Source: an uncultured archaeon
GTDB lineage: Archaea > Asgardarchaeota > Lokiarchaeia > Sigyniarchaeales > SOKP01
Reading direction: 5' to 3'
DNA length: 17,716 nucleotides
NCBI GenBank assembly: GCA_964388035.1
Contig: CAYLZE010000026.1
Coordinates: 33,223 to 50,938 of the forward strand
Below, in pieces: positions 3,512 to 9,403 of the stretch (positions within the stretch are counted from its first letter, which is position 1; each line of letters starts with the position of its first letter). A program made the translations under genes and the position numbers. The notes beneath the pieces are model-generated. The model did not search any database. It was not told the DNA's origin and saw only the letters and a program-made list of their open reading frames with translations.

Positions 3512-4474
3512 TCATGAGAGAAGCTCGAATAAATCCTTTATTTCTGGCTTGATCTTAGCTCTTTTCCCAAATACATTAATGAACCAATAACAATCGGGGC
3601 AATAGTATGTGACAAAATCGCCTTTATATTCCTTAACTCTTATTTTTGCGATTTTTTCTGCAACTTCTTTTCTTAATTGATGACCTACCCCCCCTCCGCA
3701 ACACCACTTGGGAATGTCCATTATGGTATATCCCGATTCTTTCAAAATGTGTTCAACGTGATCTCCCACTCCTTTCTTTTGATCATAAACGAGGGGACAA
3801 GCATGCTGGATGCTGACGCTACCCTCTTTCTTTTCTCTTGATGGCTCGAGGTAATCGGTATAATATTTGATTTTAATTCCTAAATCACTGTATTCTTTTT
3901 TGAAAACCATGTAACAGCTTGGACATAAAGTTATAATTTTTTTGAAACCCTTGCTCTTGAAAAGCTGTTTGTTCCTTTTTACGAGTTTATTGTAAGTCTC
4001 TATTGCTCCAGTAACTAAAATTGGGTACCCACAACATATTTCTTCAGGCAGAATACAAAAATCAACTCCTCTTCTCAAGAGATAATTGATGGCGTTTTCA
4101 CCATATCGTGGCGTTTTAACACTAGTAAAACACCCGAAATATAATAAGGTTTCACTCTCTTCTGGAATGGATCCTGTATTCTTAATTCGAGATTTATTCT
4201 TGGGATAGGGAGTGCCATACAATTCAAAATTAGCGATTATTTCTTCTAATCCTTCTATCTTGTTCCCATCCATTAAAAATTTGTGCTTTAATAAGATTCG
4301 CTCGTCGGATGTACCACATTCGCGGCAATGAACACAATTATATAATTTATTGTAATCCTCTTGTTTGAATTTAAACTCTTCTTTCCTTTTAATTAAATCG
4401 AGAACCTCTTCATTTGAAAGAAAATTATCGGGATCCACTTCTTTGGTAGGATATTCATGTTCTTTTTTATTCAT
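3512..4474 (-). CDS. CCG-domain (HdrD/GlpC-like) Fe-S oxidoreductase, compact form
   Basis: YFGC...CCGYP...CPSC (first CCG domain), HAC...CCGGG...CPDC (second CCG domain) and an N-terminal CxxCxxC. Confidence 0.85.
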   Translation of the reverse strand: MNKKEHEYPTKEVDPDNFLSNEEVLDLIKRKEEFKFKQEDYNKLYNCVHCRECGTSDERILLKHKFLMDGNKIEGLEEIIANFELYGTPYPKNKSRIKNTGSIPEESETLLYFGCFTSVKTPRYGENAINYLLRRGVDFCILPEEICCGYPILVTGAIETYNKLVKRNKQLFKSKGFKKIITLCPSCYMVFKKEYSDLGIKIKYYTDYLEPSREKKEGSVSIQHACPLVYDQKKGVGDHVEHILKESGYTIMDIPKWCCGGGVGHQLRKEVAEKIAKIRVKEYKGDFVTYYCPDCYWFINVFGKRAKIKPEIKDLFELLS

Positions 4475-4537
4475 TGTTTAAAATTCGATTTATATATTAT
4501 TTAAAACGGTCATTTATGGAATATATTAAATCTAAAT

Positions 4538-4551
4538 TATTAGATCTAATA
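4538..4551. promoter_or_regulatory. Perfect 14-bp palindrome TATTAGATCTAATA, candidate operator upstream of the CCG gene
   Basis: Self-complementary sequence about 64 nt upstream of the 4474 start, preceded by the similar TATTAAATCTAAAT. Confidence 0.3.
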
Positions 4552-4634
4552 TCTTATAACCCCGAGCTATTAGGCAATGTTTCTTTCAATATAACATCAT
4601 TATAAATTAAAGAAAAATAAAGTAAAAAACTAAA

Positions 4635-4790
4635 TTATTCTTTTTTAAGTTTTACATTTGTTCGTTGAATTCCGACTTCTTTATTTCCAGGAATTGCTGC
4701 TCCACAATTATCTCTTTTTGCCTCATTTTTTTCAATTGTCTTCTCAAATTCTTTTTCTAACTCCTCATCCGACATTTCTTTTTTTGCCAT
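4635..4790 (-). CDS. Small hypothetical protein (51 aa), not in the ORF track
   Basis: ATG..TAA reading MAKKEMSDEELEKEFEKTIEKNEAKRDNCGAAIPGNKEVGIQRTNVKLKKE; protein-like composition, co-oriented between the FTR and CCG genes, AT-rich promoter-like region upstream. Confidence 0.65.
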   Translation of the reverse strand: MAKKEMSDEELEKEFEKTIEKNEAKRDNCGAAIPGNKEVGIQRTNVKLKKE

Positions 4791-4901
4791 GATATAAATA
4801 GGGAATTCGTTTTATTTAAAATTTATAGTTATTAATTATTGAAAGCATATTTAAAGATAAAATAAAAGAAGAATTAGACGAGCTAAATCATTTTTTAAAT
4901 A

Positions 4902-5273
4902 TTAAATATTTTCATTCATGTATTCTAATGTTGCTTTTTCTTTTTCTACTGATCTTCTCTCGGGAACATTTACAAATAATTTATCTCCTTTATAAAAATC
5001 AAGCGCCAAGAATAAATTGCAATAGCACGCGCCATGTTCTTTCACATCAAGTGGAGCATAATTACAGGGACAAATTATATCTCTATCCAGTTCTCTTTTA
5101 CCTGCAGCTAACCTACAAGGACAAGATTGATATCCATATCTCTTCTTATTTTCTACAAGACCATCAATAAGATCATTTAGAGATTGTTCATCTTTATTCA
5201 AGATCCAATTATTTTTCTTAGCAACTTGGTTGCAATATTTTCTCATTCCCTCTTCAGTTTCCATGTTCATCAC
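4902..5273 (-). CDS. ftrB: Ferredoxin:thioredoxin reductase catalytic subunit (FTR/FDR family)
   Basis: Signature YGYQSCPCR...DIICPC...GACYCNLF and a VPERR tail; GGAGG SD inside the end of the upstream grx gene. Confidence 0.93.
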   Translation of the reverse strand: MMNMETEEGMRKYCNQVAKKNNWILNKDEQSLNDLIDGLVENKKRYGYQSCPCRLAAGKRELDRDIICPCNYAPLDVKEHGACYCNLFLALDFYKGDKLFVNVPERRSVEKEKATLEYMNENI

Positions 5274-5276
5274 GAT

Positions 5277-5594
5277 TTATTCCTCCTTCGAAAATAGTTT
5301 TTCATATTTATCAGGATCATATCCCACAATCACTTCACTATCATCACACACCATGAAGGGATAAGAAATTCTTGATTGGTACTTTTCTTTTAAGAAATCT
5401 AAGATTTGACTTTTATTGGAATAATCTATGGTATCCACATCCACGTAGCGATACTTTATATTTCTTTCATCTAACCAGCGCTTGCATTTCTTGCACCACA
5501 TGCACGTACTCAAAGTAAAAATAGTTACTGCTCTCTTGTCATTTTCTCCCTTTACACTTACAGATAATTTATCAATTAATTCTTGTGTTGACAT
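5277..5594 (-). CDS. Glutaredoxin-like protein (methanoredoxin-like, CMWC)
   Basis: FTLSTCMWCKK active site, SYP cis-Pro, IVGY. Start probably at ATG 5594 (MSTQE) or 5606 rather than 5660, which overlaps the HEAT gene. 3 nt from ftrB. Confidence 0.9.
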   Translation of the reverse strand: MSTQELIDKLSVSVKGENDKRAVTIFTLSTCMWCKKCKRWLDERNIKYRYVDVDTIDYSNKSQILDFLKEKYQSRISYPFMVCDDSEVIVGYDPDKYEKLFSKEE

Positions 5595-5638
5595 GTTTAG
5601 TTCCATATTTATTTGTTTTAATTTAAAATCTTTAATTA

Positions 5639-6088
5639 TTAAGCGATGTGCTCTTTCCAATTTGGATCAATGCATTGAAGGGCCTTTTCAGTCATTTTTC
5701 TAATATCCGTACTACAAGAGTCCTGTATCACTCCCAACTCAGTTAATGCTTTTTTATCGCCGATTTTAAATAAACTCTCAATTACGATATATAGCGTAGT
5801 TGCGTTGGGGTCTTTCTTTGATAGTTCCTTTTTTAAAAATTCTATGATTGGAGCGGTAGCTTTATGGTCTTTAATTTTGCCTAAAGCTTCGATGATTCTA
5901 TTAATGACTCCCAAATCTTTCTCGGAGCGAAGGGATTCTATCAATATAGAAGTTGCTCGAGAATTTTTAAAATTGCCCAATTTTGTCGCAGCCAAAGCTC
6001 GTAGTTTCCAAGAATCTCCCTTAATCAGTTGTTCTATATACTCCGTATATACTTCTTCTTTTGTATTTTTCGTCTTAACTTGATCCAT
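5639..6088 (-). CDS. HEAT-repeat (PBS-lyase-type) protein
   Basis: Repeats WKLRALAATKLGNFK...ATSILIESL, VINRIIEALGKIKDHKATAPIIEFL and VIESLFKIGDKKALTEL. Confidence 0.88.
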   Translation of the reverse strand: MDQVKTKNTKEEVYTEYIEQLIKGDSWKLRALAATKLGNFKNSRATSILIESLRSEKDLGVINRIIEALGKIKDHKATAPIIEFLKKELSKKDPNATTLYIVIESLFKIGDKKALTELGVIQDSCSTDIRKMTEKALQCIDPNWKEHIA

Positions 6089-6478
6089 TTGAGTGTATTA
6101 AATTTTACACGCATTATAATCTATTGGTTATAAATTATTGAAATTTGTAATGCATGAAAATAGTTATATAATTTTTTCAATATTTAATTGTTTTTTTCAT
6201 AATTTCACATTTGTCCAGAATTAGTTAATTAAAACCTCATTAGAGCCAATTTCGAAATTAAATGTTTAATCTTTTCTCTTAAACTTTCCTTTACCTAACT
6301 TTAAGAATACCAATATACTTTAAGTAAGAGAAGTTTTTATTAAAAAAGCAATAAGATAAATTATAATTTTTCTAGGTTAATGATAAATATTGAGATAAAT
6401 AAGTTAATACTCATACTGAAGTAATATAAATTATTTTTTAAAATCTAAGAAAATAAATTTTTTTTAAAGATCTTCTTA

Positions 6479-8996: not shown

Positions 8997-9134
8997 ATGA
9001 TTTTCCGATGCAGAAAATGCAATTATTTATATATAGATGAAGAACATGAGATTCCCCTTCATGAAGTTAAAAAAGATTTTTGCCGTCCCCGATGCCGATG
9101 TTCAAAGAAAATGTTCATAGAGAAATTTATTTAA
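8997..9134 (+). CDS. Divergent basic rubredoxin-like protein (45 aa), not in the ORF track
   Basis: MIFRCRKCNYLYIDEEHEIPLHEVKKDFCRPRCRCSKKMFIEKFI aligns without gaps to the downstream rubredoxin. Confidence 0.7.
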   Translation: MIFRCRKCNYLYIDEEHEIPLHEVKKDFCRPRCRCSKKMFIEKFI

Positions 9135-9268
9135 GACCATGAGATTGCTCTTTCTGATGATGAAACGTGAAGAATAGGTATTTTTATAAATTATTAAATT
9201 AATCTTTTTATAAATATATTAATTTGGTACTTTAAAATACATATTTCAATAGAGGTTTGAGAAAAGTA

Positions 9269-9403
9269 ATGAAATGGGAATGCACTGCTTGTGGATATAT
9301 TTATGATGAAGAAGTAGAAGGAACTAAGTTTGAAGATTTACCAGATGATTGGACTTGTCCTGTATGTGGTGTTGGAAAAGATATGTTTGAAAAAATTGAA
9401 TAA
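9269..9403 (+). CDS. rub: Rubredoxin (short-chain, 44 aa), not in the ORF track
   Basis: [44 protein letters not shown] with canonical CxxCGYxY and LPDDWxCPxCG; GAGGT SD upstream. Confidence 0.96.

Follow-up and report, generated by a model that had tools for sequence, protein, structure and literature searches.

A five-gene redox cluster in an Asgard archaeon

The cluster described here occupies positions 3512 to 6088 of a 17,716-nucleotide (nt) stretch of archaeal DNA (the window; contig CAYLZE010000026.1, positions 33,223 to 50,938), which belongs to an Asgard metagenome-assembled genome (MAG) of 5.47 Mb that is 96.7% complete. It consists of five minus-strand genes, confirmed in the window, for a HEAT-repeat protein (HEAT-1), a glutaredoxin-like protein with a CMWC site (Grx), a protein resembling the catalytic subunit of ferredoxin:thioredoxin reductase (FTR), a microprotein of 51 amino acids (aa), and a soluble protein with two CCG motifs (CCG-B). 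A first-pass annotation, made from the sequence alone, had described these as a co-oriented set, and this held: all five open reading frames (ORFs) are present, and Pfam families could be assigned to four of them, the 51-aa ORF being the one without a family.

The same gene order and strand are repeated in 42 unique loci of the window's archaeal family (Promethearchaeota or Promethearchaeia MAGs, by their record names), and the arrangement is therefore not a product of chance. The order, always on one strand, is HEAT > Grx > FTR > microprotein > CCG-A > CCG-B, where CCG-A is a paralog of the window's CCG protein. Grx is present in all 42 loci, the microprotein in 41, HEAT-1 in 26 and at least one CCG gene in 29; contig ends account for part of the absences. 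Loci outside the family were sampled as 20 from other Asgard archaea and, separately, 55 from archaea and bacteria (Bathyarchaeia, Methanomethylicia, Thermoplasmata, Nitrospirota, Thermodesulfovibrionia, Actinomycetes, Syntrophobacteraceae, Desulfobacterota, Spirochaetes and others). Genome-wide searches used a set of 400 Asgard genomes, of which 134 belong to the window's family (135 with the window's own) and 266 to other Asgard groups.

Two records labelled "Candidatus Nanopelagicaceae bacterium" and "Candidatus Odinarchaeota" (L081 and L099) carry the Loki-family cluster with 66-67% FTR identity and are probably mis-binned or mislabelled. One single-contig genome (G188:C1) has two full copies of an Isf / Grx2 / HEAT-Grx-FTR-microprotein-CCG-A array, L048 and L049, at ~0.90 Mb and 3.13 Mb; one CCG-A copy of the pair is reduced to 213 aa.

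A core pair of the ferredoxin:disulfide reductase type

The Grx gene (5277..5606) encodes a methanoredoxin-type redoxin (Pfam PF00462, 39.5 bits, E = 6.5e-10) with the active site FTLSTCMWCKK, in agreement with the LSTCMWCKK read in the first-pass annotation. Its ORF spans 5277-5660 and can be read back to a TTG at 5660; the true start is probably the ATG at 5606, which gives a protein of 109 aa beginning 32 nt past the HEAT stop, because the Grx proteins of relatives are 101-113 aa long. The best Protein Data Bank (PDB) matches, 5cax (8.8e-12) and 3nzn (8e-11), are Methanosarcina methanoredoxin-type proteins, and the window's STCMWCKK is aligned to their STCVWCKK. Grx also scores on NrdH/YruB-type NCBIfam models. 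In the window's family the site reads C(M/Q/G)WC, and across the loci compared the partner Grx is nearly always Cx(W/F/H)C.

The FTR gene (4902..5273) starts with a GTG at 5273, and the Grx stop codon occupies 5277-5279, which confirms the 3-nt gap noted earlier. Its product scores 75.9 bits on FeThRed_B (PF02943; cut-off 22) and carries the motifs CPC/CPC/CYC. The six cysteines (C51, C53, C68, C70, C83 and C85) are invariant in an alignment of 23 Asgard sequences (A4), and 111 of 121 FTRs have CYC as their third motif. The closest PDB entries are 7pwe_A (6.5e-28) and 4tpu_A (2.2e-27), with plant and cyanobacterial FTR catalytic subunits (FTRc; 7bzk, 1dj7) at ~1e-7. Entry 4tpu_A, a 173-aa chain deposited as "Rubredoxin", we take to be the ferredoxin:disulfide reductase (FDR) of Methanosarcina acetivorans. 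By the features that mark the FDR subtype the window protein groups with it, having CYC (Tyr for His) and lying nearer to 4tpu than to FTRc. It ends ~20 residues past PERR and has no rubredoxin tail, such as is found in rubredoxin-fused FDRs of 177-189 aa in other lineages. PF02943 occurs once in the host genome, and the FTR variable subunit (PF02941) had no match anywhere in it. The three cysteine motifs, the missing rubredoxin domain and the missing variable-subunit gene had all been noted in the first-pass annotation, the last now extending to the whole genome.

Pairing of the two genes is general. Grx lies immediately 5′ of FTR in 42/42 family loci and adjoins it in 16 of the 20 other Asgard loci, a 468-aa Grx-domain protein preceding FTR in one more; in 54 of the 55 archaeal and bacterial loci Grx is directly upstream of FTR, often overlapping it, or is fused to it. 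PF02943 itself is present in 245 of the 400 Asgard genomes. The PDB relatives (4tpu, 7pwe, 5cax and 3nzn) bear out the earlier reading of the pair as FDR- and methanoredoxin-like, and together with the 54/55 adjacency they identify it, at the level of sequence, as an FDR-redoxin module that is already known and widespread in anaerobes. The pair is therefore not new. As the widespread FDR-Grx pair, the core needs no new explanation; it would be the main non-flavin disulfide reductase of Asgard archaea.

Two FTR matches (L058:7907-8176 in G126 and L060:3760-4029 in G125) contain an in-frame TAA, leave open frames of 89 aa only and lack a neighbouring Grx; either gene breakage or an unusual form may account for them. 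NCBIfam includes a model for an FtrB double-selenoprotein.

The nearest characterized counterpart is the M. acetivorans pair of FDR (4tpu) and methanoredoxin (5cax), which is alike in fold, in CPC/CPC/CYC, in the redoxin site STC(V/M)WCKK and in having no variable subunit. Prakash et al. in 2018 reportedly found that FDR reduces methanoredoxin and Trx5. The window's FDR differs in the absence of the C-terminal rubredoxin, and the window adds the microprotein, HEAT-1 and CCG genes. To our knowledge coenzyme M, the reductant of methanoredoxin, is not expected in Asgard archaea. In M. barkeri, a 2015 study by Wei et al. is said to have found that FDR and an NrdH-like protein feed class III ribonucleotide reductase; this is the same kind of pair, an FDR with a small CxxC redoxin, whereas the window's is not in an nrd operon. 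Such a context was looked for and rejected, NrdD lying on a separate contig (C23) with no redoxin near it. FDRs have been described as FTRc-related iron-sulfur enzymes that reduce a Methanosarcina thioredoxin (PMC6262447), and methanoredoxin and the FTR/FDR class are summarised in PMC7278568.

The 196-aa chain 7pwe_A ("ferredoxin-thioredoxin reductase subunit B") matches the window's Grx over residues 3-72 (7.9e-05) and its FTR over residues 101-191. Because it matches both, its sequence is that of a natural Grx-FTR fusion, whereas the window keeps Grx and FTR as separate genes with a 3-nt gap. Four of the loci compared (L114, L143, L150 and L152) also encode such fusions, 196-292 aa in length. 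No paper was found in a literature search on 7PWE. With the plant and cyanobacterial FTR heterodimer (1dj7, 2pvd) the window protein has in common the Pfam family and the six-Cys cluster/disulfide motif; it differs in the low similarity (~1e-7), in Tyr for the active-site His, in the lack of a variable subunit in the genome, and in a Grx-like partner instead of thioredoxin.

A family-specific microprotein accompanies the FDR

The 51-aa microprotein (4635..4790; alignment A1) is left uncalled by standard annotation. Its N-terminal helix is acidic and its C-terminal half conserved, the latter with C29, P34, E38, G40 and R43 invariant. Substitutions among its relatives are concentrated at third codon positions, and single changes are synonymous or nonsynonymous in a ratio of 9507:5796 in frame, as against 2324:14236 and 1997:14572 in the other two frames. 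The microprotein is thus a real gene under purifying selection.

A profile search of the Asgard genomes gave matches in 122 of the 134 family genomes and in the window's own, and in 0/266 outside the family. Five of the family matches are weak and cover the N-terminus only, which leaves 118 real occurrences among 135. Set against FTR in these 135 genomes, both genes occur in 118, FTR alone in 3 and neither in 14; the microprotein never occurs alone. Where both coordinates are listed (75 genomes), the microprotein is on the contig and strand of FTR, 94-2642 nt to its 3′ side, in 73, and no more than 420 nt away in 67; of the two exceptions, one has the genes on separate contigs and the other is a weak N-terminal match elsewhere. 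Among the 42 family loci it stands directly downstream of FTR in 41, and it is retained where HEAT and CCG are absent (L033, L034, L042, L050, L100). Searched against 1.84e9 representative proteins, its profile found 8 clusters only, all from its own family, and a search of the ESM Atlas returned those clusters and nothing further. The microprotein is the tightest addition to the FDR core, and its linkage is near-obligate.

In an AlphaFold2 (AF2) model of the microprotein alone, residues 8-28 form a helix and the conserved C-terminal half is unstructured (pLDDT ~60), which fits a segment that folds on a partner. Since the microprotein persists wherever FDR and Grx both do, even without HEAT and CCG, the likeliest role for it is that of a small partner, docked on one or the other through its conserved C-terminal half. 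We also considered that it might be a degenerate rubredoxin domain split off from FDR and rejected this, as an hhalign comparison of A1 with the rubredoxin tails of fused Asgard FDRs yielded no more than a probability of 0.2% over 2 columns.

Some loci have a gene inserted between FTR and the microprotein: a bacteriorhodopsin-like gene (schizorhodopsin; Pfam 7e-24) in L045 (8709-9314) and L085, and a ferritin-like gene in L034.

HEAT-1 and truncated CCG proteins

HEAT-1 (5639..6088) is a 149-aa protein of the HEAT_2/PBS-lyase repeat type (Pfam HEAT_2, 53 bits, 4e-14). Two cysteines, C125 and C139, are invariant (alignment A3), and the gene is immediately upstream of Grx in 26 of the 42 family loci. 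Orthology with the CpcE/NblB lyases was rejected, the equivalog scores being 27-28 bits against cut-offs of 300-330. HEAT-1 as an unlinked housekeeping gene was likewise rejected: the matches elsewhere in G193, G204, G277 and G000 are a paralog, HEAT-2, which lacks both cysteines, adjoins a conserved 440-aa gene read as purD, and is also present in the window's genome. Three genomes without a cluster HEAT-1 have only this Cys-less, purD-linked paralog.

HEAT-2 is 155-169 aa long where it stands next to the purD-like gene (L076:3750-5664 in G000:C43, L073, L074 and L075), and in G000 it ends in an additional Cys-rich tail (CPYC..CKEC). In another genus (g2), a HEAT ortholog with one of the two cysteines lies outside the FTR cluster (L072:5074-7400, G147:C36), divergent beside a 495-aa flavoprotein of the glutathione-reductase/LipDH type with the motif GGTCLNVGC.

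CCG-B (3512..4474) is a 320-aa soluble protein of the HdrD/EtfD/TfrB kind (Pfam CCG twice, 77 bits, 1.1e-21), whose best NCBIfam match is the C-terminal part of TfrB (4.5e-27). Judged by the pattern C-X31-39-CC-X35-36-CXXC, two of which are needed for the HdrB/HdrD type, it has both motifs: cysteines 115/147/148/184/187 form the first (X31, X35) and 226/258/259/292/295 the second (X31, X32), which is slightly short. The ferredoxin domain is reduced to a Cx2Cx2C remnant (C47, C50, C53) that aligns to the second CxxCxxCxxxCP motif of a 459-aa HdrD-like paralog. The family has two such proteins, CCG-A, which adjoins the microprotein (GCLST.., CCGW), and CCG-B, the window's type (GCFT.., CCGYP); each contains a pair of CCG motifs and the remnant, with its three N-terminal cysteines invariant.

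The AF2 model of CCG-B (pLDDT 91) gave the soluble part of Mycobacterium EtfD (9ojn, TMq 0.70) as its best Foldseek match, followed by LutA (9a6l_A) and HdrB (5odc_B and 8rwn_B, E 1e-6 to 1e-7). Two CCG motifs are common to CCG-B and proteins of the HdrD/EtfD/TfrB type. In contrast to HdrD proper, CCG-B has only a three-Cys remnant of the 2x[4Fe-4S] domain; a membrane or heme part is lacking, and none of the partners HdrC, HdrA and HdrE is encoded next to it. The first-pass annotation had proposed that the CCG protein links the pair to a low-molecular-weight thiol; this is weakened, since enzymes without thiol chemistry, such as EtfD, LutA and GlpC, also have CCG domains, and the closest fold is that of EtfD, which is no disulfide reductase.

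The 120 best database relatives of the CCG protein are all from Loki/Promethearchaeota. CCG-A/B are almost never found outside the cluster in a genome, and three genomes without a cluster CCG gene (G147, G193 and G164) have no CCG-A/B gene anywhere. A second CCG-A/B copy in the window's genome was sought and rejected, the other 12 CCG hits being HdrD-like proteins of 380-450 aa that score no more than 93 bits. In G000 the further HdrD/GlpC-like CCG proteins of 380-450 aa, about a dozen and encoded on other contigs, make up a paralog family that is large for a single archaeon.

None of the non-family loci (20 other Asgard, 55 archaeal and bacterial) has the microprotein, HEAT-1 or a CCG gene next to FTR. 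These are additions specific to one Promethearchaeial (Loki-type) family. Linkage of the three to FTR and Grx in other genomes, on which the first-pass proposal had been made to depend, was found in many related genomes, but in one family only. HEAT-1 and CCG-A/B would depend on the core and not the reverse, since they are lost while the core stays.

Promoter-like elements divide the gene set

A promoter-like box, CAATAATTTATAA, lies upstream of HEAT at 6128..6140 on the minus strand; its putative core, TAATAATTTATAA, is common to relatives, where it precedes HEAT-1 in nearly all of the 25 listed. A second candidate element, TTTAAATA..CGAATT, matches the window twice against 0.06 matches expected, ~30 nt upstream of the microprotein ATG (4804..4820) and upstream of the CCG gene (4482..4505), both on the minus strand. 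Across genera a conserved block, tcaattttttataaataaaatccttaaata, extends from ~55 to 24 nt upstream of the microprotein ATG, and the microprotein presumably has its own, possibly leaderless, promoter. The designation of the five genes as a single module is weakened in this respect, as at least three promoter-like elements divide the set.

A probable elaborated FDR core and its alternatives

We consider it likely, with some reserve, that a core of FDR and CxWC Grx has been elaborated by one Promethearchaeial family with a microprotein, an optional HEAT-1 and optional CCG proteins. By homology, FDR would take single electrons from a low-potential carrier, either ferredoxin or possibly rubredoxin fed by the nearby NROR, and its active-site [4Fe-4S] cluster and adjacent Cys pair would reduce the disulfide of the redoxin. 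The redoxin would in turn reduce protein or small-molecule disulfides within an oxygen/oxidative-stress island. The microprotein, apparently expressed from its own conserved promoter, may be an accessory subunit of FDR/Grx or a dedicated thiol substrate; the HEAT-repeat protein, where present, would contribute a family-specific Cys pair, and one or two truncated HdrD/EtfD-like CCG iron-sulfur proteins would complete the cluster. Gene identities, motifs, conservation and linkage stand as observations; the electron donor, the direction of flow and any contact of the added proteins with FDR or Grx are inferred.

Several observations weigh against this reading. Beyond Grx-FTR, all linkage is inside one family, so that the counts are inflated by common descent. 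Both HEAT and CCG are dispensable, as the 26/42 and 29/42 loci show, and in a genome of the window's genus (G162) the cluster CCG is broken by stop codons while Grx, FTR and the microprotein are intact; an A-type CCG copy on another contig of that genome is split between two frames. In five loci (L046, L082, L089, L093, L096) genes on the opposite strand, amounting to about 2.5 kb, stand between the microprotein and CCG-A. Separate promoters seem to serve HEAT-Grx-FTR, the microprotein and the CCG gene. Three family genomes (G163, G250 and G260) have FTR without a detectable microprotein, and other rubredoxin-less FTRs function without one.

Much of this would equally suit a set of mere neighbours, two or three independent units co-resident in a conserved oxygen-stress island with no functional tie to FDR/Grx. 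Separate promoter-like elements, the variable presence of HEAT and CCG, the opposite-strand inserts before CCG-A, the rhodopsin (L045/L085) and ferritin-like (L034) inserts after FTR, and the decay of CCG in G162 while the core persists are all to be expected of independent units, and other island genes (Grx2, Isf, PDO) are syntenic too. The microprotein, however, never occurs where FTR is lacking and in almost all cases lies no more than ~200 nt from it; CCG-A/B and HEAT-1 are missing genome-wide when missing from the cluster; and order and strand do not vary, although the flanking island genes are inverted and relocated. Co-residence is thus a reasonable account of HEAT and CCG and a poor fit for the microprotein, and as an explanation of the whole cluster we regard it as rather unlikely.

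A stronger form of the favored reading, in which the microprotein is an obligate third FDR component (subunit or thiol substrate) and HEAT-1 and the truncated CCG proteins form an Hdr-like electron or disulfide side branch, seems to us distinctly unlikely. If true, it would mean an undescribed multi-protein iron-sulfur disulfide-reduction machine in the closest prokaryotic relatives of eukaryotes.

Still less probable is a relay along the lines of the first-pass annotation, in which CCG acts in series with FDR/Grx, either as an Hdr-like link to a low-molecular-weight disulfide or as an electron entry replacing the rubredoxin domain, with the microprotein or HEAT as an accessory subunit that possibly gives the fourth Cys ligand of the Cx2Cx2C site. 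CCG-B has the complete pair of CCG motifs and a fold matching HdrB, LutA and EtfD, the N-terminal site has three cysteines only, invariant in both paralogs, and the microprotein has one invariant Cys to offer; CCG-A/B occur essentially only behind Grx-FTR-microprotein, and the window contains a CoADR-rhodanese gene and free rubredoxins. Against it, CCG is optional and is decaying in the sister genome, some B-type copies lack the last Cys of motif 2 (CPDA), CCG domains are also found in the non-thiol enzymes EtfD, LutA and GlpC, and there is no linked thiol-biosynthesis gene.

Least probable, and in our judgement very unlikely, is that the Grx-FDR pair chiefly supplies reductant to class III ribonucleotide reductase as in M. 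barkeri: NrdH/YruB-type models match Grx, NrdD (475 bits) is encoded in the genome together with a single FDR, and a path from ferredoxin through FDR and an NrdH-like redoxin to NrdD in M. barkeri is cited in PMC6262447 (its reference 32), but NrdD is on contig C23 with no Grx or FDR nearby, and oxygen-defence genes neighbour the cluster in all families examined.

For the favored reading, an elaborated FDR core, what is new lies in the three family-restricted additions, the microprotein, the Cys-bearing HEAT protein and the truncated HdrD-like proteins, which are now defined and directly testable. The first-pass annotation did not recognise the combination as described, and we too found no match in the searchable literature: no paper joined the microprotein, a Cys-bearing HEAT-1 or truncated CCG-A/B to FDR, which is weak evidence as colon-joined enzyme names are unsearchable, and nothing was found for Asgard with FTR or for FTR-like with CCG. 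The link between the microprotein and FDR is the most testable new lead, and the microprotein offers a clear case of an iron-sulfur enzyme with a small, conserved protein tied to it. Most Asgard archaea are strict anaerobes, and the ways in which they cope with oxygen and with thiol redox stress matter for models of eukaryote origin.

The surrounding redox island

The island in the window includes two PDO-type double-thioredoxin proteins, a second Grx-like gene, an Isf-type FMN reductase, an NROR-rubredoxin fusion, free rubredoxins, a flavodiiron protein, an acyl-CoA dehydrogenase and a CoADR-rhodanese-TusA protein. The genes listed as free rubredoxins lie at 8997-9134 and 9257-9403. The ORF at 9257-9403 matches rubredoxin (2e-15); the one at 8997-9134, a 45-aa ORF that follows the NROR-rubredoxin fusion, has a weak phmmer match to the fusion (1e-04) and no Pfam rubredoxin match.

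Flavoproteins of the NROR or glutathione-reductase type and rubredoxins recur beside Grx-FTR in several phyla. The earlier description of the system as NADPH-independent is not established, as the pair repeatedly has NAD(P)H-type flavoprotein reductases and rubredoxins next to it. In Bathyarchaeia, Jordarchaeia and other Asgard archaea, a ~460-aa flavoprotein disulfide reductase (Pyr_redox_2 and Pyr_redox_dim) stands directly 5′ of Grx and a rubredoxin-fused FDR; this three-gene unit was seen in L115 (6314-8552), L121, L130, L134, L137, L144, L066 and L067, and its composition hints at a link from NAD(P)H or a low-molecular-weight thiol to FDR.

The Asgards in culture, MK-D1 and apparently also Lokiarchaeum ossiferum, are members of the sister family, in which the three additions are absent. 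That family, which includes Promethearchaeum syntrophicum MK-D1, Ca. Harpocratesius and a 6.04-Mb single-contig genome, has a divergent NROR flanking Grx-FTR, followed by a flavodiiron protein and, a few kb on, an acyl-CoA dehydrogenase (L053, L054, L055, which is the same as L111 and, for MK-D1, L136, and L107). The linkage of FDR to oxygen-reduction genes is tighter there than in the window.

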